This document shows, piece by piece, positions 6,035-54,711 of a stretch of DNA of 64,000 nt; within the stretch, counting starts at the first letter, position 1; each line of letters begins with the position of its first letter. The notes below the pieces were generated by a model that saw nothing but the letters and a program-made list of their open reading frames with translations, did not search any database and was not told the DNA's origin. The position numbers and the translations under genes are program-made. The stretch comes from a virus (Duplodnaviria > Heunggongvirae > Uroviricota > Caudoviricetes): the IMG/VR virus record IMGVR_UViG_2671180724_000008; one strand, given 5' to 3'.

Positions 6035-6817
6035 ATGAAAGACGAAATTCAGAAATTAGCCTGCGACATCATTGATAAAACTGGTTTAGAAATCAGCGAG
6101 AGCAATCGACTAGACATCATTGAAAAAGCGGTAAAAACAGCAATGGATCATATCGCCACTCGTTTGGTTGAGATCCCGCTACCAGGGCTACCTTATCTGA
6201 AGGTTGAGTTACACGTATGGGGTGAACCTTCTTGTGCACGGCGTTCTGCATTAGTTGTTTTTATTAGCAAAGAAAACCCGCTCAGTCTTAAAGTGCAGGT
6301 TGGTGCATGGATGGATGGAAAAGTGATCTACACAAATACCGTTTTTTGTGCGCCAAACGACAGTATTATTGAAGAGGCTATTCAGGAATCACTTCTAACT
6401 ATGCATAGCTTAGTTTTGCTGGAAGACAAGCAAAACTACGAAGAGTACTTACGGTCGATAAAAGGTGAGAGAACATTGTCACTTAAAGCCGATTTTGTTA
6501 CCCCGACAAACCTGTTGGAAGTCTTGCTTAATAAAGGGGCTAATGATGCCGTAAATGTAATCAGAGAGAGTGAGTATGCGTCTCTTTGCGACATGTGCAA
6601 AAGCCAGTTGGATCTGGTGCATATCGTTATTGATGCTGGGAAGGCATGTGATGGCGTAATGGCGGAATTTGCTGGGAAGATGGTCAGGATTGCTAACGAA
6701 TTACCGATGATAGAGCAAGAGGCTAAATCATACGCCACCAATCATGTCACAGAGCTTCTTGTCCCCTATCGCTTAGAAAGCAATCAGCGCAAGATGGTTA
6801 GCTGGGGAAGTTGGTAA
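6035..6817 (+). CDS. Hypothetical protein
   Basis: 260-aa ORF with GGAG RBS. Confidence 0.5.
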   Translation: MKDEIQKLACDIIDKTGLEISESNRLDIIEKAVKTAMDHIATRLVEIPLPGLPYLKVELHVWGEPSCARRSALVVFISKENPLSLKVQVGAWMDGKVIYTNTVFCAPNDSIIEEAIQESLLTMHSLVLLEDKQNYEEYLRSIKGERTLSLKADFVTPTNLLEVLLNKGANDAVNVIRESEYASLCDMCKSQLDLVHIVIDAGKACDGVMAEFAGKMVRIANELPMIEQEAKSYATNHVTELLVPYRLESNQRKMVSWGSW

Positions 6818-10263: not shown

Positions 10264-10339
10264 GATGGTGTAGCTCAGCGGTAGAGCAGTTGGCTGTTAA
10301 CCAACTGGTCGGTGGTTCGAATCCACCCACCATCGCCAA
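10264..10339 (+). tRNA. tRNA-Asn (anticodon GUU)
   Basis: Cloverleaf by hand: acceptor GATGGTG/CACCATC, anticodon stem GTTGG/CCAAC with loop CTGTTAA, T-arm GGTGG-TTCGAAT-CCACC, 3' CCA. Confidence 0.8.
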
Positions 10340-10343
10340 TTTA

Positions 10344-10430
10344 GGGGAGTTAGTCCGTAGAGGTAGCGGTGTAGACTGTAAATCTACTGTCATTGCGACT
10401 CGGGTGGTTCGACTCCATCACTCCCCACCA
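10344..10430 (+). tRNA. tRNA-Tyr (anticodon GUA), long variable arm
   Basis: Acceptor GGGGAGT/ACTCCCC, anticodon stem GTAGA/TCTAC with loop CTGTAAA, T-loop TTCGACT, 3' CCA. Confidence 0.7.
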
Positions 10431-10434
10431 AATT

Positions 10435-10510
10435 GCCGGTTTAGCTCAGTTGGTAGAGCGCCTGCCTTGTAAGCAGGATGTCAGCGGTTCGTGTCCGTTA
10501 ACCGGCACCA
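10435..10510 (+). tRNA. tRNA-Thr (anticodon UGU)
   Basis: Acceptor GCCGGTT/AACCGGC, D-arm GCTC-AGTTGGTA-GAGC, anticodon loop CTTGTAA, T-arm AGCGG-TTCGTGT-CCGTT, 3' CCA. Confidence 0.8.
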
Positions 10511-11460: not shown

Positions 11461-12795
11461 TCATGCCAAATTATCCAGATTTCTTTTCTTTTTTTCAATT
11501 ATATTTCTCGCGCCAGAAAAAATTTTACTCAAAATAATTGATTTGCTTGCTCTATTATTAAGATGTAACAACGCGCTATAAAATACATAGTTATCTATTT
11601 TACTATTTAAAGTATTCCCAAGCTTCCCGTTATATGTGCTATTAATAGTATTAAAATATACATGTTCAGGACCTATATTACAAATACCCCTATCAACTCG
11701 CTTTAAATAATGTTTAACTAAAGAAATAGCATCTTCCTTATCATTAATAACATAAAGTCCTGAGCGTTTACCTAGCTTGCTGTCCGAGAATAATTTATAA
11801 CCAACAAGTTCATTTAACGTATTATCCACTTTTGTCAACTCTTTGTTGGCAATCTCCAAATAATACTCAATCTCTTTCTCCATATTACTTATTAAAGAGT
11901 TAAATTCTGCTCGTAACAAATCACCACCAGGTGATTTATAACTCCATAAAATTGAATTGGTAATACGTACTACGTCAGATACTTCTGGTTTCTCTGAATA
12001 GTTTTTGTATCTAGTGCAAATAATGCTGTGCTTTATATATTCTCTAACTAATGATCGATAATCCCTTTCGAAAAGGTTTTTGACATCTAGTCTTCCATTG
12101 CTTGTTGTTATTAAGGTGGTGTTTAAAACTGGGTCGCCTTCAAAAAAATTATATTTATTTAGTAATCGTTTTAGCTTGTGTGAATTATGTGATGTTTCGC
12201 CATAATAATTTATCCCAAAAATAGCAATTATTAGCATAACATCAGGAGTGATGAAATGTCGTAATTGCTCGGCATAAACTTTTTTATCTTCGATTTTCGA
12301 AGATGGAGAGTAAAAACCTTTGTCTATATATTCTAATATTGAAACAATATTACTAACATAACGTATAAAAACTTGATTCATTACAACGGAATCATAAACC
12401 TGATGCAAATAATCTACTCTCAAGTTGTTTTTTATTTTTTCCCCTGTACTAGATGATAACTCTTCTTTTACCTGCCCAAGTAGCTTTTCGTGGTGCTCCA
12501 GCAATGTTTTAAACCATTGTTCAAATGATGATTTTCTTGCCTCAGTTAATGAATCTGATGTTATCTGGACAGCTTTCATAGCTGCTTTCGCACTTTTCTT
12601 TGCTTCATAAGCGTTCCATGCTGAAGCACAAAAAGCTGCCGCCGTGATGCAACTGGTAAAAATAGAAATCCTATCTGCAACATTCAAGCTCCAGAACCAA
12701 TCAGACGATGAAATCAAAACCACAGATATTACGGGAACAATGAAAATCAAAACAGGCATGTATGTACTCGCTCTAATAGTTATTAGTCGAGGCAA
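11461..12795 (-). CDS. AT-rich membrane-anchored protein of unknown function; candidate superinfection-exclusion, abortive-infection or defence gene
   Basis: Gene visibly much more AT-rich than neighbours; two N-terminal TM helices then about 380-aa soluble region; own AT-rich promoter region and terminator; opposite strand. Confidence 0.6.
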   Translation of the reverse strand: MPRLITIRASTYMPVLIFIVPVISVVLISSSDWFWSLNVADRISIFTSCITAAAFCASAWNAYEAKKSAKAAMKAVQITSDSLTEARKSSFEQWFKTLLEHHEKLLGQVKEELSSSTGEKIKNNLRVDYLHQVYDSVVMNQVFIRYVSNIVSILEYIDKGFYSPSSKIEDKKVYAEQLRHFITPDVMLIIAIFGINYYGETSHNSHKLKRLLNKYNFFEGDPVLNTTLITTSNGRLDVKNLFERDYRSLVREYIKHSIICTRYKNYSEKPEVSDVVRITNSILWSYKSPGGDLLRAEFNSLISNMEKEIEYYLEIANKELTKVDNTLNELVGYKLFSDSKLGKRSGLYVINDKEDAISLVKHYLKRVDRGICNIGPEHVYFNTINSTYNGKLGNTLNSKIDNYVFYSALLHLNNRASKSIILSKIFSGARNIIEKKKRNLDNLA

Positions 12796-12854
12796 ATATT
12801 ATATAAATCTCGTTATGATTTACAGACATGTATACGTATTGCTAATTATCACCA

Positions 12855-12888
12855 ACAAATGATAGGTGTGTACATATCTATCATTTGT
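12855..12888. promoter_or_regulatory. Palindrome ACAAATGATAG-N12-CTATCATTTGT in promoter region of the minus-strand gene
   Basis: Perfect 11-bp inverted repeat; half-site related to the GATAAGTA family. Confidence 0.45.
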
Positions 12889-12937
12889 TGTAAAATTAAT
12901 GTATACGCTATGAATACACTAATAATATGAGGTAATC

Positions 12938-13183
12938 ATGACTATCGTTATCTACGGACGAGATAACTGTTCATACTGCAAACGTGCGGTCGAGCTGGCG
13001 AAGCAACTAAAGGGACATGGCTACGGTGATTATGAGTACATCGACATCACTACTACCGGTATCGATAAGGAAAAACTTAGCGAAATTGTTGGTAAACCGG
13101 TAGAGACTATACCCCAGGTACTGATCGATGGCCAGCCGATTGGCGGATACACAGAACTGGCTGCATACGTCAGCACCCTCTGA
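12938..13183 (+). CDS. Glutaredoxin (NrdH/Grx-like redoxin)
   Basis: CSYC active-site motif near N-terminus, 81 aa. Confidence 0.75.
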   Translation: MTIVIYGRDNCSYCKRAVELAKQLKGHGYGDYEYIDITTTGIDKEKLSEIVGKPVETIPQVLIDGQPIGGYTELAAYVSTL

Positions 13184-15440: not shown

Positions 15441-17549
15441 ATGTCTAAAAAACGTTCCATCAAAGAGGTTCAGGACTTCCGTGACAGTGTAAAACGAGTA
15501 GTCGCTCTCCTTTCAGGTAAAAACATCCCTGTTGCAGAACGAGGGGACGACGCTTATGTACGCTATAACGATGATGGAGAGCCAATTCTCGTAAACATCC
15601 CATCAATCCCGGATAACGCAACACCGGCATTGATGAATGCTGTGCGCGGATTTCTCGATCATGAGGTTGCTCACATTTTGTTTACCGATATTCGTGTGTC
15701 CAACAAAATGAGAGAAAAAGGACGCGTTCCTTCCTGGTCGCTATGGAATGCCTTAGAAGACGTGTTCATCGAGCGAAAAATGGGGCAGGTCTTTAACGGA
15801 ACAAGACGTAATCTGATGGCAACTCAGCGCCTTATAATCGAAAAAGTCTTTAAACCAAAGGCTTCAGAGGCTATTGCTTATTGTGGCAAAGATCAGCGCG
15901 CGCTTTTTCTAAACTTCTTTCTCTGTCCGGTTGTAAGAGCCTGGGATGGCCAAGCACCGTTCGTAGATTTCATGGATGAATACTGGCCTGTCATTGAGAA
16001 ACCAATTTCATTATTAAAAGAACATGGTATCGATGTGGCCGTGCGTAACATGTCTTGCACCGAGGATTGTGTAAAGGTGGCTGCGACCATAGCTAAGATC
16101 CTCAAAGACACTGAAAGTGAAAGCAAAGGTAAGGAGTCAGCTCCGGGAAAAACTTCCGATCCTTCAGACGCTGACCAGACGGATGCCTCTGGAGAAAACA
16201 ATGAAGACAACGAAGATCATGAGACACCCTCAGCGTTAGATAATCACAAATCTATCGAATCAGAATCACACAGTAAGCACAAACATGATAATAACGACAG
16301 TGATGATTCAGATAATTCTGAATCATCAGAAACAATATTCGATGATACAGAAAATGATAAAGAGGTATCAGATTCTGATGCTTCTGATAACGCGGCGTCA
16401 GAATCATTAACCGCTGGCCACGAAAAAAGAAAAACGACAGAAGACGGCTCTTCAGATATTCCAACTCCGTCAAAAATGAGTCTGGAAGAGGCTTTAGAGG
16501 AGCTGGATAGCATAGAAGATGAAGTCGGAGGCATGACAGAAGATGCTCTATCCGAAACGATTAAAAGCGAGTTAACAGAAAGCTCGAAAAGCGAATACAG
16601 GCCATACAATCGCTCATACGACTTCATCGGCTCGATTGATCAGGCAGAAGCCCATATCAAACGGCTTATTAAAACATTCTCCGATATTGATTTAGGAGGA
16701 TATCCAATCAGCCGCTATCGCATCGTTCCTGAAGGCAACCAGCTCTTCGACAAATATATTGAAAAGCATCTTTCGTCAGGTGTTTCGTCGACGCTGGCAA
16801 AAGACCTGGAGCGAGCAATAGCAAGCAGAAACAGAGTTCAGTTTATACCGGGCCAGCGTCGGGGGCGCATTCATGGTTCTAGTATCTACAGATTAGCAAT
16901 GAATGATGATCGCGTGTTTCGTAAAAAAGAAGAATCTAAAGCCGTTAACGCCTGTGTTCAACAAGTGATTGATTTATCAGGTTCAATGAGTGGCGAAACG
17001 ATAAAACTAGCTCTTGCAAGTGCATATACCATCGCCGATGCTCTTGATCGAATAAATGTTCCCAACATTATCACCGGCTTCACTACATTTGGCAGTCATC
17101 TGGCAGCGATAGAACTTAAGGCTATCAAGTATGAGTTCTCTCGCTTTGAATCTTTAATGCTACCTATCATCAAAAATTGGAATGAAAAAGCAAATTCTCG
17201 CGAAGTTCGCTCACGTATGGGGTGCGTAGGCTACACATTCCCACTTCTTAATAACGTGGATGGTGAAAGCATAGCCAGCCTTGCATCGTTATTTTCCGGT
17301 CGCATGGAGGACAGGAAGATCATGCTTGTTCTGAGCGATGGCGAGCCGCTGGCTGTTGGGAGAGGTTTTGACGCTCATTTGCGTTCGGTTGCGAAGCAAA
17401 TTGAAACGCAGACTGACATTGATTTGATGGCAATTGGCATCATGACTGACGCACCGGAGAGATTTTACGCAAATCATGCCCTGGTAACGAGCGTTGATAG
17501 TCTTGGTTCATCTGTAGTTACTGAACTATCTCGTATCATTTTGAAGTGA
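15441..17549 (+). CDS. CobT-like protein with C-terminal vWA domain and acidic Ser/Asp-rich linker
   Basis: MIDAS-like DLSGSMSG motif in C-terminal third; long low-complexity acidic insert; adjacent to AAA ATPase. Confidence 0.6.
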   Translation: MSKKRSIKEVQDFRDSVKRVVALLSGKNIPVAERGDDAYVRYNDDGEPILVNIPSIPDNATPALMNAVRGFLDHEVAHILFTDIRVSNKMREKGRVPSWSLWNALEDVFIERKMGQVFNGTRRNLMATQRLIIEKVFKPKASEAIAYCGKDQRALFLNFFLCPVVRAWDGQAPFVDFMDEYWPVIEKPISLLKEHGIDVAVRNMSCTEDCVKVAATIAKILKDTESESKGKESAPGKTSDPSDADQTDASGENNEDNEDHETPSALDNHKSIESESHSKHKHDNNDSDDSDNSESSETIFDDTENDKEVSDSDASDNAASESLTAGHEKRKTTEDGSSDIPTPSKMSLEEALEELDSIEDEVGGMTEDALSETIKSELTESSKSEYRPYNRSYDFIGSIDQAEAHIKRLIKTFSDIDLGGYPISRYRIVPEGNQLFDKYIEKHLSSGVSSTLAKDLERAIASRNRVQFIPGQRRGRIHGSSIYRLAMNDDRVFRKKEESKAVNACVQQVIDLSGSMSGETIKLALASAYTIADALDRINVPNIITGFTTFGSHLAAIELKAIKYEFSRFESLMLPIIKNWNEKANSREVRSRMGCVGYTFPLLNNVDGESIASLASLFSGRMEDRKIMLVLSDGEPLAVGRGFDAHLRSVAKQIETQTDIDLMAIGIMTDAPERFYANHALVTSVDSLGSSVVTELSRIILK

Positions 17550-31449: not shown

Positions 31450-31496
31450 ATGCAAACTGACTGCGGCTCGTTCCGCAGTCATATTTCATAGTCGTC

Positions 31497-32029
31497 ACCG
31501 CTGACAGCATACACAATCAACTACCGCTGATAGCATATCGAGAGTCTATCTTACCGCTCACAGCATACTTTACTCGATTTTTTACCGCTGACAGCATACT
31601 TAAGACATTGCATGAATAATGTGTACCGGTATGGGTATAACCAGAACAAAATTACCGCTGGCAGCATACGAAGGTCTGACATATACCATTAATTACCGCT
31701 GATAGCATATCCAAACAAAAATTCCTCAATAAAACACCGCTGACAGCATACGTTCTATCAGGGAGCAGCAGGCAATAAATGCCTTTCACTACAAGCAATC
31801 AGCGCAATAGCAATAGAATGTTAGTGAGCGCAAACCTATATGGAATGCACTCTTCGAGGTTAGTAACCACTGGGGAGGTATGACAGAGCATTGAGTGGTG
31901 ATAGATGATTTACCGCTCACAGCATACGTTCATCTCACTATACCGCTGGTAGCATATCTTTAACCGTTCACAGCATACTTTTCAGAAAAATAGCCGCTGA
32001 TAGCATACATTTCACCGCTGACAGCATAT
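31497..32029. repeat. Iteron array downstream of repA (incA-like): about 12 copies of 17-bp TACCGCTGACAGCATAC in two clusters
   Basis: Direct imperfect repeats at roughly 31497, 31522, 31553, 31583, 31653, 31694, 31735, 31911, 31941, 31962, 31991, 32013; irregular spacing. Confidence 0.85.
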
Positions 32030-33123
32030 CAAAGCAGTTTGAGACTATTGGAAAGGATCTCAATCATCTTGATATTTTCAGGCGTCAAATTCTGCGAAAG
32101 TTCGGTTATCTTGTTGATAATGTTCTGTTTAGCATCAATTTCCCCGGCTTTCTCATCTGGTTTTTTGGGTTCGATGTCTTCAGGTTTTGGCGGTGCGACT
32201 TTAAGTTTTGGATTACGGCTGTGAATCTGGATATAGATCGACCGCCCTCGCTTAATCTCGCTGTATTCGAGATAGCCCAAATCTTGGAGAGCTTTTAAGC
32301 CGTTACGTATAGTCTGATTCTGCGAGCTGACATTCCTGCTACTCAAATTGAGTCGCGCACGCAATCGAGCAAGCGATACCGGCGCAGGCTTGGTTGGAAG
32401 ACTTTCGATGAAGGTGTACAGAGCCTGTGCTGTTTCTTTGCGTGGTAGCTTATTGATAACCTTTAACTGCAAAAGAACCTTATGGTCAAAGCGATATAGT
32501 TCGGCCAGCTTCGGTTCTGCATAGAACACCACCGTATCTTTCTGCTCGTTGTAGTCCACGCTATTGATGAGGTGCACCATCAGAAGCGAGATCTTGTTAG
32601 AGCCGTCGACGTTCTTTTCTTCATACGTTCTCTGGAAAGACAGAGTTGTACGCATGATCTTCAAAAGACTGTTTGTAAGCCGGTCGCGGAGTGTTTTGCG
32701 GATCTGTGACGATGGATAGCCACAAAACTTCGCAAATTTCGTGATGCTTAACTCGACACGACCGTTAGGTTCGCCGTATTCTGCCAGCGAACGCACAACG
32801 CCCACCCACGTTTTGAAATCATGATCCATGTCGAGACGAGGACCGGTTATCTTGATGTCGGAATAGCCTTCAGAACGGGCTACTTCGAGCTGAACAAGCT
32901 CCTTTGAAGCATCGATTTCATTTGGCTTGTTACGCTTGCTGTATTTTGTCCCCTTGAGCGTGGGCACGAACAACCCCAGCCGCATCAACGCAATTGGTTG
33001 GACTGTATTGTTGCTATTAGGGACAAGTTCCCCTGTGTACAATTCAAGGGAACCTTCTTCAAAGTTGTCGAGATTATCTTCTACTTCTTTGTTATTTTTA
33101 CCTTTTTTATTTTTTGTGGACAT
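32029..33123 (-). CDS. repA: Plasmid replication initiator RepA (P1/RepFIB-type)
   Basis: Iteron arrays on both sides; motifs NSNNTVQPIALMRLG, ITGPRLDMD, ALYTFIESLP, HSRNPKLK resemble P1 RepA as recalled; start placed at 33123 so the gene does not overlap upstream iterons. Confidence 0.85.
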   Translation of the reverse strand: MSTKNKKGKNNKEVEDNLDNFEEGSLELYTGELVPNSNNTVQPIALMRLGLFVPTLKGTKYSKRNKPNEIDASKELVQLEVARSEGYSDIKITGPRLDMDHDFKTWVGVVRSLAEYGEPNGRVELSITKFAKFCGYPSSQIRKTLRDRLTNSLLKIMRTTLSFQRTYEEKNVDGSNKISLLMVHLINSVDYNEQKDTVVFYAEPKLAELYRFDHKVLLQLKVINKLPRKETAQALYTFIESLPTKPAPVSLARLRARLNLSSRNVSSQNQTIRNGLKALQDLGYLEYSEIKRGRSIYIQIHSRNPKLKVAPPKPEDIEPKKPDEKAGEIDAKQNIINKITELSQNLTPENIKMIEILSNSLKLL

Positions 33124-33141
33124 GTGGACACCTTTGTCATT

Positions 33142-33245
33142 CAACCGCTGACAGCATACTTGATTTGCCGCTGGCAGCATACAAAAAACAGTTGGCAGCA
33201 TACGGCGAACCGTTGACAGACTATCAATTACCGCTGACAGCATAC
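33142..33245. repeat. Iteron array upstream of repA (origin/incC-like): about 5 copies
   Basis: Copies at about 33142, 33166, 33190, 33209, 33229, between repA start and GATC cluster. Confidence 0.8.
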
Positions 33246-33279
33246 ATGAACATGGCTTCAGACCAGTCGTGGCGCGGCT

Positions 33280-43642: not shown

Positions 43643-44746
43643 GTGTCACTCCTTTTGAATCGTGAGCATACGAACGGTCAGGTAACAAACGCATCGTATG
43701 CAAAAGTTATTGAGACGGTGCTTAAAAGCGGCGTGCAGGCTGATGATCGCACAGGCACTGGTACTTTAAGCACCTGCTACGTTCCCTCTTACTACATGCT
43801 TACTGGTGGGACTGTGCCGCTTATTTCTGGAAAGGCGGTAAATCTTAAGCCACTACTTGTCGAACTTGAGTGGTATCTGAAAGGCACGGGCAACATCCAA
43901 TTTCTCAAGGATAACGGCGTTAAGATTTGGGATGCATGGGCCGATGAGAATGGCGATTTGGGGCCGGTTTACGGTAAGCAGTGGCGTCGCTGGGAAGATA
44001 CCCGCATCGTGAGCCATAGTGAGTATCTGAGCAAGATCGATACGTTCCGTGAACGCGGGTACAAAGTCGAGGGATACCTGGGTATCAGTGAAGATCGCGT
44101 AGTGCTGTCCCGTGAAATCGATCAGCTACAGCGTATTGTCGATACACTGCGCACGAACCCTACCGATCGTCGCATCATGCTTAACGCATGGAACGTAGGC
44201 GAGCTTGAGGATATGAAACTGCCACCTTGCCACTTTGTCTTCTCTTTGTGGAGTCGTGAGCTTGATTTTGAAACCCGTTTAACGATGGCAACTGACATTG
44301 GTCTTCAACACAGTCGCCTCGGTTACGAGTCTATCTACACCAAGATGCTATACGATCTGGAGATGGTCGGCAGTGTTACTGAAACTGAACTGGATGAACT
44401 TGGAATCCCCAAACGCATCCTCAACTCCTGCCTCGTACAGCGTAGCGTAGACACTTTTGTTGGTATGCCATTCAATATTGCTGGTTATGGCATTCTCACT
44501 CATTTTCTCGCGAAGATTACGGGTCACATGGCCGGTGCCTTTGTGCATTTTGGCTTTGACGTGCATTTGTACAATAACCACATGGAAAGTGTGTGTGAGC
44601 TAATGAAACGACAGGCTCCAGAGCATTCAGATCCGGTCGTTATTTTCCCTCATGAATGGTCTGAGCTGGATGATTTCAAATGGGACGATATTCTGATTCT
44701 TGGCTATGACCCTCTACCGTGGATCAAGGTTCCAGTGGCGGTGTGA
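43643..44746 (+). CDS. thyA: Thymidylate synthase (ThyA) with two insertions
   Basis: Motifs DRTGTGTLS, LPPCHF, QRSVDTFVGMPFNIAGYGILT; about 100 aa longer than E. coli ThyA. Confidence 0.9.
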   Translation: MSLLLNREHTNGQVTNASYAKVIETVLKSGVQADDRTGTGTLSTCYVPSYYMLTGGTVPLISGKAVNLKPLLVELEWYLKGTGNIQFLKDNGVKIWDAWADENGDLGPVYGKQWRRWEDTRIVSHSEYLSKIDTFRERGYKVEGYLGISEDRVVLSREIDQLQRIVDTLRTNPTDRRIMLNAWNVGELEDMKLPPCHFVFSLWSRELDFETRLTMATDIGLQHSRLGYESIYTKMLYDLEMVGSVTETELDELGIPKRILNSCLVQRSVDTFVGMPFNIAGYGILTHFLAKITGHMAGAFVHFGFDVHLYNNHMESVCELMKRQAPEHSDPVVIFPHEWSELDDFKWDDILILGYDPLPWIKVPVAV

Positions 44747-46339: not shown

Positions 46340-46759
46340 ATGTTTAGTGAAATGTTGCTTGAAGATGAACTGGATCGGAAAACAACAGAGGCTTTGATTC
46401 GTGTGGCGGACGAACATTCTCGGTCGTTTATGAGCGATCGAGAGGCTCGTCTGGCTATTCGTGCCATATTCGAAACTGCGCAAGGGCTTGTTGGCGCACA
46501 AGTAGGTGAAGCCATTAACATCGCCATGTCTCAGTTCAGTGAAGGCAGTAAAAAGCCTCTGTTTCCTATGCATTTGATGCTGGCTGGTGGCACGGTGCTT
46601 TATATCTCTGTTTGTCTGGATAGCAACCAAATCAATATTCTCAACACTGCGTCAGGTAAGTGGAAAGATCCGATTGTCTGTGAAACCAGTGAAGAAACTT
46701 TGAAAAAAGCGGCTCAATTTGTACGTAGCGCACTACTTAAGGGCGCTAAGAAGTTGTAA
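46340..46759 (+). CDS. Hypothetical protein
   Basis: 139-aa ORF. Confidence 0.45.
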   Translation: MFSEMLLEDELDRKTTEALIRVADEHSRSFMSDREARLAIRAIFETAQGLVGAQVGEAINIAMSQFSEGSKKPLFPMHLMLAGGTVLYISVCLDSNQINILNTASGKWKDPIVCETSEETLKKAAQFVRSALLKGAKKL

Positions 46760-46768
46760 GGAGTTCTG

Positions 46769-47326
46769 ATGACAACGATTGTTGCAGGCATCGATATCGA
46801 GTCTACGGGACTGGATTTCCTTGCTGGTCATAAAATTATTGAAATCGCAATTACCCGCTATGAACTGGAGACACAGAGACATATTGATAGTCTGGAGATG
46901 CGTTTTAACCCTCGCAGAAACATAGATCCGAAAGCTCAAGCCGTTCATGGCATTTCATTGGAACAGCTCGCAGCTGAACCTTTGTTGTCAAATCATGCCA
47001 GCGAAATTGGCGCTTATATGGGGGCATGTAGTGCGTGGATTGCTCATAACGGCGAAGCGTTTGATATACCATTTATTCGGCACGAGTTTTCAGGGTATGG
47101 AGTAAGACTGCCAGACGTTCCTGTTATAGATACTATGTTATCGGGATTGTGGGCCACAGAAGACGGTAAACGCCCCCGCCTTGAAGAGTTGGCCTTCTCT
47201 CTTGGCTTTATATACGATCATGCCAAAGCACATAGTGCCTTATATGACACAAACTTAATGATGCAATGCTTCTTTAAGGCACGTAATAAGTACGGATTTT
47301 TTAAATTACCCTCTGAAATTGTGTAA
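46769..47326 (+). CDS. DnaQ-like 3'-5' exonuclease (DEDD), candidate proofreading subunit
   Basis: Exo motifs DIESTGLD, HNGEAFDIPF, HSALYD. Confidence 0.8.
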   Translation: MTTIVAGIDIESTGLDFLAGHKIIEIAITRYELETQRHIDSLEMRFNPRRNIDPKAQAVHGISLEQLAAEPLLSNHASEIGAYMGACSAWIAHNGEAFDIPFIRHEFSGYGVRLPDVPVIDTMLSGLWATEDGKRPRLEELAFSLGFIYDHAKAHSALYDTNLMMQCFFKARNKYGFFKLPSEIV

Positions 47327-47330
47327 AACA

Positions 47331-47368
47331 AAAGCCTACTTTAAAAAGTTTAAAGTAGGCTTTCTTTT
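47331..47368. terminator. Bidirectional terminator (AGCCTACTTT ... AAAGTAGGCT flanked by A-run and T-run)
   Basis: 10-bp stem with T-runs on both strands. Confidence 0.7.
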
Positions 47369-47484
47369 AAAGAACAGTCGCCTTTCAATCATTTCCTGCC
47401 TGTATTTAATACTTTTCCGCCTGATAGGTTTAGTCAAAATGTAGCCATCGAAACGCAAATGTAACCAAACAGAAGGAGACTTAC

Positions 47485-48294
47485 ATGAGTTCGGTTGAAA
47501 ATGTAATGACAAATGATGATCTGGACGAGCTGACAGCCATGTTGCAATCACTTGATGAACCAGTAAAAAAAGCTGCACAGGTTGAAAATACTGATGATAT
47601 TGACGATCTGCTGCTCGGCCTCGATGCTGGCGTAGCCATGAGTTCTGATGATGTTGCCGAAGAACTGTTCAATGAAGAAAAAGCAGGTGATTTCAGCTCT
47701 GCTTTAAATGAGTTGGAGTTAGCGCATGAGCCTATAAACGTAATTAACGCTGAAAGTGGTGAAGCTGCCGAAAATGAGCCAGAACAGTTGGGGATCATTG
47801 AGGTTGAAGAGTGTGTTGAGGTTAATGATGAATTAAAAGTTCAACAGTCAAATGATAGCAATACAAATAAAAAAACTCGTGCTGCAAGAGGTCCTCGTTT
47901 TACTTTAAGTGATAAAGATGATTCGTTTTTCAATAAAGCAGGCTTAGAAAAAGATATTTTCTTAGACGCTTACGAAAACGCGCCTGTCAAAGCGAAGGAT
48001 AAGATATTAAACCTTCTTAATTGGTTTAGCGGAGGTCCAGATATTAGTGTTTACACGGTAATTTCCATGAGACACCTTCTTACAGAAAAGAAGGCTACAA
48101 GTAATAGTATTAAGATTGCTTTAATGAGCAATCCAGAAAAACCGTATCCGCTTAACACTGCGTCAACTCAGGCTGGGCAAATGATGGCTGTATTTCCAGC
48201 TACAGGAATTGCCGTTAGAGACGGTGGAAATCTAACATTGAACGAAGAATCACCGATCGTTAAGAAGTTTGTCGCGGAGTACACTATTGGATGA
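47485..48294 (+). CDS. Highly acidic protein of unknown function
   Basis: N-terminal about 110 aa very rich in D/E; C-terminal half AT-rich; sits upstream of the Dam-type methyltransferase. Confidence 0.5.
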   Translation: MSSVENVMTNDDLDELTAMLQSLDEPVKKAAQVENTDDIDDLLLGLDAGVAMSSDDVAEELFNEEKAGDFSSALNELELAHEPINVINAESGEAAENEPEQLGIIEVEECVEVNDELKVQQSNDSNTNKKTRAARGPRFTLSDKDDSFFNKAGLEKDIFLDAYENAPVKAKDKILNLLNWFSGGPDISVYTVISMRHLLTEKKATSNSIKIALMSNPEKPYPLNTASTQAGQMMAVFPATGIAVRDGGNLTLNEESPIVKKFVAEYTIG

Positions 48295-48370
48295 CGTTCC
48301 CCTACTGAAAATAAAGCCCATAGAGAGCTTTATAGTGCTGGGTAAGCTAATCACATACCCAGCACCATAA

Positions 48371-48418
48371 AAACGCGCCAGAGAGCTTCTTGTTCGCATT
48401 TCTGGCGCGTTTTATTTG
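48371..48418. terminator. Bidirectional rho-independent terminator (ACGCGCCAGA ... TCTGGCGCGT then TTTTATTT)
   Basis: 10-bp GC-rich stem plus T-run. Confidence 0.75.
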
Positions 48419-48477
48419 ATTGCCATACATAAAATCAAATGCAAAAATAGGTAATCACTTACCTATCGAGAAAGAAG

Positions 48478-49071
48478 ATGATTGCAGCCGAAAAAATCAA
48501 ACAGCGAAAGCGCGACAACTCTCTTCGTGACCTCTGGAGAACACCTGATTGGCTGTTTTCTGCCATTCAACGTTATCTTGGAGTGACATTTGATGTTGAC
48601 GTTGCCTGCAACAAGGACAATGCAAAGCTGCCTAATTTCATAGGCATTGAGCGTGATGCTTTGAAATCTGAATGGGGACAGCCAGGTACAATTGCCTTCC
48701 TCAATCCACCCTACTCCAAAATCTCCCCCTGGATTGATGCGGCTATACGTGAGCAGGCTCGCGGAGTTACAACAGTGATGCTAATTCCTCAATCCCTCGA
48801 TACAAAGTGGTATGAGCGTGCAACAGAGTATGCGAATGAGACGATTATTCTGTCTGGTGGCCGCGTAGCGTTTGTCGAGCCTGACGTCAATTTGGGTCAG
48901 GTAGAAGTAAACATCAACCCCGGTGGCAGTATGCTCGTTGTTTTTCGAGGATTCTGTCAGGACGCTGGGCACTCTATAAGCAAGATCCCTTTGGACGTCA
49001 TGAAAAGTCTGGGAGGGTATGATCCTGCGAATGTGGTCAGGAAAAAAAGACCATCAAAGAAGGCTGCTTAG
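48478..49071 (+). CDS. Phage-type DNA N6-adenine methyltransferase (Dam family)
   Basis: WRTPDWLF, FDVDVA and NPPYS motifs. Confidence 0.8.
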   Translation: MIAAEKIKQRKRDNSLRDLWRTPDWLFSAIQRYLGVTFDVDVACNKDNAKLPNFIGIERDALKSEWGQPGTIAFLNPPYSKISPWIDAAIREQARGVTTVMLIPQSLDTKWYERATEYANETIILSGGRVAFVEPDVNLGQVEVNINPGGSMLVVFRGFCQDAGHSISKIPLDVMKSLGGYDPANVVRKKRPSKKAA

Positions 49072-51594: not shown

Positions 51595-52020
51595 ATGTTA
51601 GGTTTCTTCAAAAAGAAAACTCGTAAAGCAGTTATCGAAGTCAAAAAAATGGAGAACCGTGATGCGGTTGAGGCCACCGTGTGGGGCGCGTACATGATCT
51701 CCTATGCCGACGGCACATGTGACGCAAAAGAAATTGCCATTCTTGAGAAGACAATTGCAGCTCTGCCTGCGTTTTCTCCGTTTGCTGGTGAGATTGCCCA
51801 AATGAGCGCCAATATCCGTGCTCGTTACGAAGCGTCCCCTCGTTCCGCTAATGCACAGGCTATGCGTGAGCTGGCTGATATTGCGGGCACTCCAGAGGCG
51901 GTCGATGTTCTGTGTCTGTGCCTTGATATTGCCGACCAGGACGGCATTGGTGAACAAGAAGAGCAGGCACTGAAAAAGATCGCCCAGGCGCTTCAGTTGT
52001 CACTGGATGCTTATCTCTAA
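51595..52020 (+). CDS. TerB-like domain protein (tentative)
   Basis: Pattern YADGTCDAKEIAILEK ... ALQLSLDAYL reminiscent of TerB/DjlA-N family; conserved promoter and RBS motifs upstream. Confidence 0.4.
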   Translation: MLGFFKKKTRKAVIEVKKMENRDAVEATVWGAYMISYADGTCDAKEIAILEKTIAALPAFSPFAGEIAQMSANIRARYEASPRSANAQAMRELADIAGTPEAVDVLCLCLDIADQDGIGEQEEQALKKIAQALQLSLDAYL

Positions 52021-52178
52021 TGCTTGAGAGATTCCGGCTTGTGACCGTCATTGCTCTTCTGGTGATGGCGGTGTTGGTGGATTTTACGGGAAAGATGATG
52101 TCTGTCATTTCTGATGGCGTCCTCATTGGTCTGGCGATCTACTTCGCTTACCCGCTAGTCCGTAAAGCAACGTGTTAA
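52020..52178 (+). CDS. Small membrane protein (52 aa; below track cutoff)
   Basis: ATG overlaps TerB-like stop (TAATG); two hydrophobic segments; terminator follows. Confidence 0.35.
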   Translation: MLERFRLVTVIALLVMAVLVDFTGKMMSVISDGVLIGLAIYFAYPLVRKATC

Positions 52179-53025: not shown

Positions 53026-54711
53026 ATGAATACAGCCCTTTCCATCATCGACGATGCCAGCTCAAACACGGCTATCGACTATCGTCAGGAAATGAATGTC
53101 ATCCACGAAATCGTGGCCGAGTGCGAGAAAGAGATCGCCTTCATGTATCAGGTACACGACTTCGTTTATGGCGACGAACGCCACAACATGATTAATCGCC
53201 TGCTGCGACTAAACCATCGACCAGATGAAGATCGCTCGCGTTTAAATCGAGGTTGGTTGGATAAAGTCGATCTGGAATGGGTGAAACAGAATATTTGGGC
53301 CGAGTACTGGAGGAAGGTCACGGACATGACTAACGTTTTGCTGATCATGCCAGCTTCCCGTCGAGATGAGTGGCGCGAGCAGTTTATAGAGGGCAAACAG
53401 GAAGTCATCAAAACTGACAGAACCGGCTACCAGATGAAAGTTAAAGAGTTCGTTGGTGTACCGGAGTTCAAAGCAGAAACGGTCATACCCACGATGCTTA
53501 ATTTGCTGAATGACAGGCACAAATATCTCTCTGAGCGCGTGTATGGCTTGTTTAAGGCGCTGAGTCCTGCGCACAAGACAAATAAGACAAACGGTTTCAG
53601 CGAGCGGCTGATAATCGCTGACTGCATTTCTGATTTCTGGCGGGACAGCGTTAGCGTGAACTATCGCAAAGAGGACTACATCGACGATCTGCGTGTCTTG
53701 CTTCATTTCTTCGCGCACAAAGAATTTATTACCATCAACCGCACTGCTGAGGTGCTATCAGCTGCGTATAGGGCAAACGACTGCCAGACCGGTGACTGGA
53801 TGAACGTCGATGGAAATCTGATGCGCGTGAAGATGTTCAAGAACGGCAACGTTCACTTTGAAATACATCCTGACGTGGCCTGGAAGTTGAATGAGGTGCT
53901 GGCTTACAGTATGCCTGCTGCAATCCCCGCGCCATGCCGCACTGCGCCAAAAACACGGGCACCAAAGCAGTTCGGGTTAATCCAGAAGACGATCTCCGTG
54001 CCGGTTCGCACTGCGCTTCGTGACGGGCGATTGAGCAAAGACAAAGGCGTATGGTACTTCTCTGATTCAGCTCTCCAGAAGTCGCAGGTGGAAGAGCTTG
54101 AGCGCACACTGAGCTTCATTGGCGGCGTGCAGGAGAAAAAGCACTGGCAGTTCCCGTATGACATCGGCCATACGCTAAATACGATTGTGGCTACCGGTTT
54201 AATACCGGATACAAAATCACACCAGTTCTACCCTACCCCACGCTTGATTGCTGAGTACGTTGCCAGAGCCACTGAATTGAAGCCTGGTGAGAAGCTGCTG
54301 GAGCCTCAAGCCGGACGTGGGGATCTTCTGGCCTATATTAACGCCGATCTGGAAGATGTTACCTGCATAGAAATCGCACCTCTCTTCGCTGATATCCTGC
54401 GTGGAAAAGGGTATACGAACACGATTTGCTGCGACTTCATAAAGTGGTCTGAGGACAACGCAGGTTATCAGTTCGACAAAATCGTTATGAACCCGCCGTA
54501 CTCGCTTGGTCGTCATAGAGAGCACACGATGGCTGCGCTGGGGCATCTGAAAGTCGGCGGGCGTCTTGTAGCAGTATTGCCGGGCACTGCGCCAATACTG
54601 GACTGGATGACGATGGATAATTACGTTTATGCCAGAGGGAAGTCGTTTACCAACGAGTTTGAAGACACAGGGATCACAGTCAGCGTATACGTTTTCAAAC
54701 GCGTTAAATGA
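53026..54711 (+). CDS. Two-domain protein: about 400-aa N-terminal region of unknown function fused to C-terminal N6-adenine/N4-cytosine-type DNA methyltransferase domain
   Basis: C-terminal motifs FYPTP, EPQAGRGDL (AdoMet binding) and NPPYS (catalytic). Confidence 0.7.
   Translation: MNTALSIIDDASSNTAIDYRQEMNVIHEIVAECEKEIAFMYQVHDFVYGDERHNMINRLLRLNHRPDEDRSRLNRGWLDKVDLEWVKQNIWAEYWRKVTDMTNVLLIMPASRRDEWREQFIEGKQEVIKTDRTGYQMKVKEFVGVPEFKAETVIPTMLNLLNDRHKYLSERVYGLFKALSPAHKTNKTNGFSERLIIADCISDFWRDSVSVNYRKEDYIDDLRVLLHFFAHKEFITINRTAEVLSAAYRANDCQTGDWMNVDGNLMRVKMFKNGNVHFEIHPDVAWKLNEVLAYSMPAAIPAPCRTAPKTRAPKQFGLIQKTISVPVRTALRDGRLSKDKGVWYFSDSALQKSQVEELERTLSFIGGVQEKKHWQFPYDIGHTLNTIVATGLIPDTKSHQFYPTPRLIAEYVARATELKPGEKLLEPQAGRGDLLAYINADLEDVTCIEIAPLFADILRGKGYTNTICCDFIKWSEDNAGYQFDKIVMNPPYSLGRHREHTMAALGHLKVGGRLVAVLPGTAPILDWMTMDNYVYARGKSFTNEFEDTGITVSVYVFKRVK

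Follow-up and report, generated by a model that had tools for sequence, protein, structure and literature searches.

Is a highly acidic phage protein encoded next to a DNA methyltransferase an anti-restriction DNA mimic? This question is raised by a locus in a stretch of 64,000 nucleotides of the IMG/VR virus record IMGVR_UViG_2671180724_000008 (positions 1-64000; hereafter the window), which belongs to an E. coli SSU5-like phage-plasmid. On the + strand of this locus, the gene of a 269-residue acidic protein is followed by dam, which encodes an orphan Dam-family N6-adenine DNA methyltransferase (Table 1). An initial annotation correctly located the open reading frame (ORF) of the acidic protein and its Asp/Glu-rich N terminus, and proposed that the two genes form an anti-restriction module in which the acidic protein acts as a DNA mimic of the Ocr/ArdA type. 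The acidic protein is, instead, a member of an unstudied family that combines a known fold with an unusual, but not unprecedented, architecture. Its gene is a core gene of a supergroup of phages of about 100-120 kb, in which it has fixed synteny to dnaQ, and its behavior is not that of an accessory counter-defence gene. We tentatively favor, at somewhat less than an even chance, that the protein works within the replication module of the phage as an adaptor or decoy that is anchored on DNA and bears an acidic arm.

Architecture of the acidic protein

The acidity of the protein resides in its N-terminal arm. Residues 1-125 contain 14 Asp and 21 Glu (28%) next to four Lys and no Arg, with a net charge of -31 and an isoelectric point of 4.05, and the sequence beyond them is close to neutral. 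The most acidic 100-residue stretch among the 86 window ORFs of at least 100 amino acids is shared, in a tie, by this protein and the product of ORF 15441-17549. N-terminal acidity is kept throughout the family (median of 24% Asp/Glu and net charge of -20 in 172 relatives) despite divergence of the sequence, and is therefore a selected feature and not the product of chance. In an alignment of relatives, conserved short acidic motifs near the N terminus (DDLDELTAMLQSLDEP, IDDLLxGLD and GDLxxVxEELE) are followed by an indel-rich acidic linker, a basic patch and a strongly conserved C-terminal region of 130 residues. The arm motifs have the short pattern D-L-D-x-L-L-x-x-L, and 100 of the 172 proteins contain the motif [DE]-h-[DE]-x-h-h-x-x-h, with 142 occurrences in all against 6.4 expected from shuffled sequences (22-fold). 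AlphaFold2 (AF2), supplied with the alignment of relatives, proposes four N-terminal helices with predicted local distance difference test (pLDDT) scores of only about 50-83 (residues 1-83) and values below 50 for residues 84-131; the prediction for the acidic arm is one of weak structure or disorder.

At the DNA level, in-frame repeats at 47514, 47592 and 47646 are the nucleotide image of the repeated arm peptide. A lytic origin inside the gene, in the style of lambda O/ori, was rejected as unsupported because the distances between the 16-nt repeats at 47514, 47592, 47646 and 47757 are divisible by three and the repeats encode DD-h-D/A-E; neither an iteron array nor a skew change was found within the gene. 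The C-terminal half of the gene had been described as visibly AT-rich. This holds in part only, the N- and C-terminal halves having 41.0% and 39.3% GC, respectively, against 45.7% for the window. The minimum (35.5%) is reached mid-gene, at 47800-48100, over the variable linker, and parts of the window are more AT-rich than the acidic gene (e.g., 33.8% GC at 12001-13000).

The C-terminal domain (residues 140-269) is predicted with pLDDT values of 88-97 and consists of three helices followed by a helix-strand-helix-helix-hairpin arrangement. The latter has the winged-helix topology H1-S1-H2-H3-S2-wing-S3, with helices at residues 189-201, 206-214 and 223-240 and strands at residues 203-205, 243-246 and 249-252, all with pLDDT above 90. 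The domain is near neutral (net charge of -1, about 0). Six residues, K173, N176, S188, T225, Q229 and Q232, are invariant in 38 diverse members that have 21-63% identity to the window protein, and three of them (T225, Q229 and Q232) lie on the predicted recognition helix 223-240. The near-invariant K169 lies together with K173 and N176 on the helix preceding the recognition helix, and R245 lies on the wing. The closest folds to this domain are those of bacterial winged-helix repressors and activators, which are ordinary winged helices, and the comparison with Fur, ArsR/SmtB, MarR, BlaI/MecI, PadR and linker-histone globular domains gave 3-17% identity and no hidden Markov model (HMM) match. 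In contrast to regulators of the Fur/ArsR/MarR/BlaI/PadR type, the acidic protein is without metal-/ligand-binding or dimerization domains, its winged helix is fused to an acidic disordered arm of about 130 residues, and its recognition helix is uncharged and invariant in very distant phages. Searches of the PDB by sequence and by profile and a BFVD fold search returned nothing useful.

Distribution, synteny with dnaQ and proposed role

No Pfam, NCBIfam or PADLOC model matches the acidic protein. The full-length protein is matched by phrog_5235 and its C-terminal part by phrog_3932, both listed with 'unknown' function; ten distant members matched only these two PHROGs and no Pfam family, and no Pfam model matched consistently across the 38 diverse members. 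The shared architecture was checked in these 38 aligned proteins, and by composition in the 172 relatives. A word-indexed search retrieved 55 relatives, for which the source names shown were all 'hypothetical' or 'uncharacterised'; where the gene is complete, it mostly lies on contigs of about 85-146 kb from Enterobacteriaceae. The source names of ten distant clusters were not informative. With HMMER, an exhaustive search gave 667 representative clusters at E<1e-3, of which 277 at E<1e-10; among the best 150 of the 667, most proteins have 220-330 residues and a few are fragments. By tblastn, the gene was located in SSU5-like phages, the Pseudomonas Nickievirus, Rhizobium phages and Stenotrophomonas phages, all of them about 103-122 kb in genome size save for one 84-kb record, and Acinetobacter is also among the carriers, with relatives in phages and plasmids. 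In PLSDB, 769 plasmids carry the gene, of which 758 are non-mobilizable; the records listed are mostly of 105-121 kb.

Synteny was examined in 121 IMG/VR loci and annotated phage loci, in which family proteins were clustered at 60% identity into 26 lineages and homologues of the neighbors were located by iterated HMMs. In 25 of the 26 lineages, the gene of a DnaQ-like exonuclease lies upstream in the same orientation (within 400 bp in 10), as does that of the 139-residue phrog_5373 protein in 22, and the annotated loci of nickie, RHph_X66 and BUCTxx99 agree with this pattern. In Rhizobium-type loci, the next promoter-like site is found directly after the acidic gene (at 6395 in lineage L005 and at 6503 in L117), which suggests co-transcription with dnaQ; the acidic gene appears to close the dnaQ transcription unit in several lineages, such as these.

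The region of about 4 kb around the window locus shares 97-98% identity with the Escherichia phages CMS-2020a, PhiR41_1 and Cyrano and, starting in the middle of the acidic gene, about 79% with the Salmonella phage SSU5 and Klebsiella SSU5-like phage-plasmids. According to the Cyrano annotation, the locus lies inside a long co-directional replication and nucleotide-metabolism block that encodes ribonucleotide reductase, MazG, thymidylate synthase, a polynucleotide kinase-like phosphatase, dihydrofolate reductase, a P-loop kinase-like protein, the 139-residue hypothetical protein, an exonuclease resembling the epsilon subunit of DNA polymerase III, the acidic protein, Dam and RNase H. The gene order of this block is the same in SSU5. 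Farther upstream, the same annotation lists a DnaE-type polymerase, a DnaB-like helicase, a primase, a ligase, a gp32-like single-stranded DNA-binding (SSB) protein, UvsY, a RecA-like protein, SbcCD, RuvC and a RepA plasmid replicon.

A replisome-linked role is favored because the acidic gene sits just downstream of dnaQ, inside this block. In the proposed mechanism, the winged helix (residues ~140-269) would dock on DNA or on a nucleic-acid-bound partner through a conserved polar/basic patch formed by K169, K173, N176, T225, Q229, Q232 and R245, and a disordered linker would join it to the long acidic arm with its three amphipathic helices. The arm would act as a multivalent nucleic-acid-like bait, comparable to the acidic tails of SSB proteins or the flexible acidic domain of SPO1 Gp44, and would recruit or block the basic DNA-binding surfaces of a DNA-transaction machine at the site to which the winged helix is anchored. 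Its most likely partner would be the phage replisome (the DnaE-type polymerase with DnaQ, the helicase and the gp32-like SSB), not restriction enzymes.

SSB acidic tails recruit replisome partners, and in SSB-type proteins the acidic segment can also fold back on the DNA-binding surface. Like the tip of E. coli SSB, T7 gp2.5 and the A-domain of T4 gp32, the acidic protein would combine a nucleic-acid-binding module, a disordered linker and an acidic segment, and a genomic association with replication genes is common to them. However, SSB-type proteins have an OB or gp32-type fold and a short C-terminal tip, whereas the acidic protein has a winged helix and an N-terminal multi-motif arm of about 125 residues; moreover, the element already encodes a gp32-like SSB.

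Several points weigh against an adaptor acting at the replisome. The invariant K173, N176, T225, Q229 and Q232 and the near-invariant K169 would be compatible with contacts to DNA, but the recognition helix contains neither Lys nor Arg and the domain charge is about 0; DNA binding by the winged helix is not assured, and winged helices can also serve as protein-binding modules. In the E. coli clade, a terminator separates the acidic gene from dnaQ and a conserved upstream element of its own precedes it, and gene neighborhood in phages is weak evidence of physical interaction. DnaE-type polymerases are found in 1213 phage records and the family in about 23 (18 and 23 in two queries). That the protein is a general accessory of phage DnaE/DnaQ polymerases was rejected as a general rule, the family being far rarer than DnaE.

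The nearest analogue, a resemblance in architecture only, is Gp44 of the Bacillus phage SPO1, a host take-over protein in which a winged-helix-like DNA anchor is combined with a flexible acidic single-stranded DNA-mimic domain that binds the beta/beta' subunits of RNA polymerase (PMC8208478). A similar take-over function of the acidic protein, in which the winged helix anchors non-specifically and the arm jams RNA polymerase or, e.g., H-NS-like silencers, would follow the same three-part logic (folded anchor, acidic disordered domain, further disorder; PMC8208478) of anchoring on DNA and presenting a nucleic-acid-like decoy. In both proteins the long flexible acidic region has internal repeats and is nearly devoid of basic residues (0 Arg and 4 Lys in the 125 residues of the arm). 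Invariant C-terminal residues across very different hosts fit a conserved, non-sequence-specific target, and the strong ribosome-binding site and own terminators of the acidic gene are compatible with high expression. Nevertheless, such a function seems unlikely. The anchor is C-terminal in the acidic protein and N-terminal in Gp44, and the arm contains 28% Asp/Glu and amphipathic helical motifs whereas the mimic domain of Gp44 has 57% and is fully coil; no sequence relationship is apparent, and relatives of Gp44 are reported from Bacillus phages only (PMC8208478). Gp44 is encoded in the host take-over cluster of a virulent phage, whereas the acidic gene belongs to temperate phage-plasmids and related elements, where it is part of the replication block and not of a cluster for host shut-off. 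The element is kept as a plasmid prophage in the 769 plasmids, in which a constitutive growth inhibitor would need tight repression, and neither of the two promoter-proximal palindromes described below (motifs A and B) is present at the acidic gene promoter in this clade.

SSU5-type phage-plasmids are common in clinical Enterobacteriaceae, and such elements can carry resistance genes. The acidic protein is a core replication-block protein of these elements without a Pfam family, an annotation or a studied relative, and its architecture, motifs and fixed link to dnaQ provide a handle on how they replicate or take over the host.

The anti-restriction question and the Dam methyltransferase

The acidic protein resembles Ocr (T7 gp0.3) and ArdA in its high Asp/Glu content and low isoelectric point, and the Asp/Glu density of its arm is in the range of both. 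A winged-helix-like element is likewise present in the C-terminal domain of ArdA (PMC2731889), the phage-plasmid is engaged in anti-restriction by other means, and every enterobacterial SSU5-like clade has the acidic gene and dam side by side. Yet it is very improbable that the acidic protein is a mimic of this type directed at type I or other restriction enzymes and forming a module with Dam. The Pfam model of Ocr gave no match at E<=0.1 for the window protein or at E<=1 for the 38 diverse members, none of these proteins matched ArdA (PF07275), and membership of either family was rejected on the lack of both a sequence and a fold match. Ocr and ArdA are compact and acidic over the whole surface, with B-DNA geometry, whereas the arm of the acidic protein is predicted to be floppy instead of a compact, rigid and B-DNA-shaped carboxylate array, it is indel-rich and of variable length, and it is the near-neutral C-terminal domain that is conserved. 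Where ArdA is a three-domain elongated dimer, acidic over its surface, a single confident domain (140-269) was found here. The setting differs as well: ArdA belongs to the leading region of conjugative plasmids and transposons, whereas the acidic gene is a core gene beside dnaQ in the replication block, is found in phages of unrelated hosts and has non-conjugative carriers (758/769). Literature on phage-plasmid anti-defence yielded nothing useful. This case cautions against mis-annotation, as Asp/Glu richness beside a methyltransferase is insufficient for calling an anti-restriction DNA mimic.

The acidic gene and dam do not make up one module either, because a terminator and a separate promoter lie between them and their adjacency is rare, Dam being the 3' neighbor in only three of the 26 lineages, the three enterobacterial ones. 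The two hairpins downstream of the acidic gene fold together at -48.1 kcal/mol (z = -7.96), and the second one, followed by TTTTATTT, is a predicted intrinsic terminator. The promoter-like site that comes next is the putative dam promoter, and Dam would be expressed from this palindrome-controlled promoter independently of the acidic gene.

The identification of Dam as an orphan N6-adenine methyltransferase with an NPPY motif was borne out. The protein scores 130.8 bits against Pfam PF05869 (cut-off 28.1; 5.4e-38) and 113.6 bits against the TIGR01712 phage_N6A_met equivalog (cut-off 97.05), its best PADLOC match is 'orphan methyltransferase', and no nuclease domain is found among the products of its flanking genes (the acidic protein, a 76-residue phrog_5343 protein and RNase H). 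Homologues are present in 1981 phage records, including VT2-Sakai dam and those of T1-like phages. In passing both curated thresholds and in having NPPY and no partner nuclease, it is like the phage orphan Dam enzymes of the VT2-Sa, T1 and HP1 type, and is thus a routine, ordinary enzyme of an already known kind; unlike in those cases, the dam promoter of the window is overlapped by a conserved palindrome common to at least ten other promoters of the element. The orphan enzyme M.EcoVT2Dam targets GATC (PMC6602927), and the window Dam is probably also GATC-specific, although its identity to VT2-Sakai Dam (39% over 73% of the length) does not establish specificity. The window shows no avoidance of GATC (272 observed versus 311 expected), which is compatible with this specificity and not diagnostic of it. 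Dam plausibly protects or marks the phage DNA by methylation, and it is reasonable to regard such self-methylation as restriction protection.

The element clearly invests in avoiding restriction, with two orphan methyltransferases and palindrome avoidance. The product of 53026-54711 contains LEPQAGRGD and NPPY (residue 489) motifs and matches best mad2 and then type II methyltransferases in PADLOC; some distant lineages (L127 and L099) likewise encode homologues of it 3' of the acidic gene. In the whole window, 6-bp palindromes are strongly avoided: 12 of the 64 are absent, e.g., AGCGCT (12.8 expected), GAATTC (9.3) and GCATGC (11.7), and 10 more are seen once or twice, AAGCTT occurring once against 20 expected. 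Of the 2016 non-palindromic hexamer pairs, only one is absent, and CTAG is at 0.40 of expectation. This avoidance is a passive form of anti-restriction by site loss.

Transcription signals, promoter palindromes and other features of the element

As read from the sequence, the hairpin and T-run just after dnaQ delimits, in the E. coli clade, a separate transcription unit for the acidic gene. The element upstream of the acidic gene, a putative promoter or regulator site, consists of two C-Y-GCCTG repeats 21 bp apart without a recognizable -35 box, and no second close copy (up to 3 mismatches) is present in the window. This element could serve as a promoter that requires an activator or is subject to autoregulation.

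The palindrome overlapping the dam promoter, motif B (TARGTA-N6-TACYTA, core AGTAA-N4-TTACT), has 11 window sites at up to one mismatch, versus 0.29 expected. Most sites are intergenic, with one copy (46722) in the last codons of ORF 46340-46759, and those that were read lie between a -10-like box and the next ribosome-binding site. The copy upstream of dam is invariant in all SSU5-like clades and is probably an operator. In the high-GC Rhizobium-type relatives, the palindrome follows CTATAA -10 boxes, and in other lineages AGTCA-N4-TGACT takes its position. Motif B resembles a site for a conserved factor encoded by the phage, or a 5' hairpin, and a promoter-proximal palindrome common to E. 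coli through Rhizobium phages may be a more intriguing lead than the acidic protein. A second promoter-proximal palindrome, motif A (AAACAAnTTGTTT), has nine window sites versus 0.38 expected, and its conservation does not extend beyond the enterobacterial SSU5-like clades. The L084 clade has one copy directly upstream of the acidic gene. Motif A is also found 5' of each neighboring gene around 51595-52178 (+), where a TerB-domain protein (P1 TciA-like, 141 residues) and a 52-residue TciB-like ORF are encoded.

These sites bear on whether the acidic protein could be a sequence-specific phage transcription factor, in which the winged helix reads its own upstream element or the promoter palindrome and the arm contacts RNA polymerase or a regulator. 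Its fold is closest to that of bacterial winged-helix repressors and activators, and Thr and Gln on a recognition helix are typical base-contacting residues. The clade-conserved upstream element with its two repeats and poor -35, as well as the position of AGTAA-N4-TTACT or AGTCA-N4-TGACT right after the -10 boxes in many lineages that carry the family, are consistent with such a factor. We nevertheless consider it doubtful. Recognition helices are identical in AGTAA and AGTCA lineages (e.g., GTARSQSGQMM in L119 and L122), no winged-helix residue co-varies with the palindrome variant, and several protein-carrying lineages show neither palindrome within 12 kb; these shared helices do not support the idea that the acidic protein reads the promoter palindrome. 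Motif A is limited to enterobacterial clades, other regulator genes are present in the element, and the recognition helix is invariant, whereas those of sequence-specific regulators normally diverge between distant phages.

A broader proposal, which appears quite improbable, is that the family comprises previously unrecognised DNA-anchored flexible acidic decoys encoded by a core gene of the supergroup or else a conserved reader of its promoter palindrome. In the decoy version, the winged helix would sit on DNA and the arm would neutralize a conserved DNA-binding machine of the host (RNA polymerase, nucleoid silencers or nuclease-based defences). If this were true, the idea of a DNA mimic would be right in spirit, with a mechanism unlike that of Ocr or ArdA.

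Table 1. Features of the acidic gene-dam locus and related sites in the window.
Feature	Position	Strand	Basis or remark
139-aa protein, phrog_5373, function not assigned	46340-46759	+	directly 5' of dnaQ
DnaQ-like 3'-5' exonuclease	46769-47326	+	PF00929
Terminator-like hairpin and T-run just after dnaQ	47326-47368	+	inverted repeat, 20-nt arms, 90% complementary, 3-nt loop
Upstream element of acidic gene, CTGCCTGTATTTA-N8-CCGCCTGATAGGTTT, then -10-like CAAAAT	47396-47450	+	alignment of 8 SSU5-like clades
Ribosome-binding site AAGGAGA, 5 nt before ATG of acidic gene	47473-47479	+	sequence; start and site conserved in all SSU5-like clades
Coding sequence of 269-aa acidic winged-helix protein	47485-48294	+	phrog_5235
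Acidic N-terminal arm, residues 1-125	47485-47859	+	composition; AF2 helices, pLDDT ~50-83
Three D-[LIV]-[DA]-x-L-type amphipathic motifs, residues 10-24, 36-47, 54-62	47512-47556, 47590-47625, 47644-47670	+	
Variable disordered linker (predicted), residues 84-131	47734-47877	+	pLDDT <50; indel-rich alignment columns; lowest GC of gene
Conserved basic patch K..R..RF[TS]L at linker end, residues 128-139	47866-47901	+	
C-terminal globular domain, three helices and winged helix-turn-helix, residues 140-269	47902-48291	+	AF2
Two stable hairpins 3' of acidic gene (48329-48371 and 48370-48413)	48329-48417	+	inverted repeats; conserved across clades
Promoter-like site of dam, TTGCCA, 17-nt spacer, TG-extended AAAAAT	48420-48448	+	consensus match; conserved across clades
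Palindrome TAGGTAATCACTTACCTA (motif B) over -10/+1 of putative dam promoter	48448-48465	+	one of at least 11 window sites
Coding sequence of orphan Dam-family N6-adenine DNA methyltransferase, 197 aa	48478-49071	+	PF05869, TIGR01712
NPPY catalytic motif, residues 76-79 of Dam	48703-48714	+	
Second orphan methyltransferase, 561 aa	53026-54711	+	N-terminal DUF4942; C-terminal N6-adenine methyltransferase domain
Motif B 18-bp window sites, first half	2541, 5975, 6856, 9497, 12863, 17565, 23151, 26665		
Motif B 18-bp window sites, second half	30706, 34213, 38897, 43475, 43613, 48448, 50661, 54712		
Motif A window sites	394, 3324, 15409, 27817, 41339, 51558, 52287, 53001, 55909		
Lineages with promoter palindrome			L005, L117, L119, L121, L110, L114, L122, L126, L098

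Some further features of the element were observed. The AF2 model of the 139-residue phrog_5373 protein (pLDDT 74.6) contains three helices, a small sheet and one further helix, and none of its structural matches was informative. The thymidylate synthase (43643-44746, +) is long (367 residues), has a GTG start right after a motif B site and matches its Pfam model in two separate stretches, which implies an insertion relative to canonical ThyA. An Rfam scan of the window found three clustered tRNA genes at 10264-10507 (+), assigned to Asn, Thr and Ser in the Cyrano annotation, and nothing beyond them. ORF 15441-17549 (+) encodes 702 residues, of which 282-381 contain 33 Asp/Glu with a net charge of -27; it is described as CobT-type in the Cyrano annotation and is followed by a 411-residue ORF annotated as cobalamin synthetase. 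Finally, at least 10 copies of the iteron TTACCGCTGACAGCATAC form two arrays at 31495-33248 that flank the RepA plasmid replication gene, as annotated in Cyrano.

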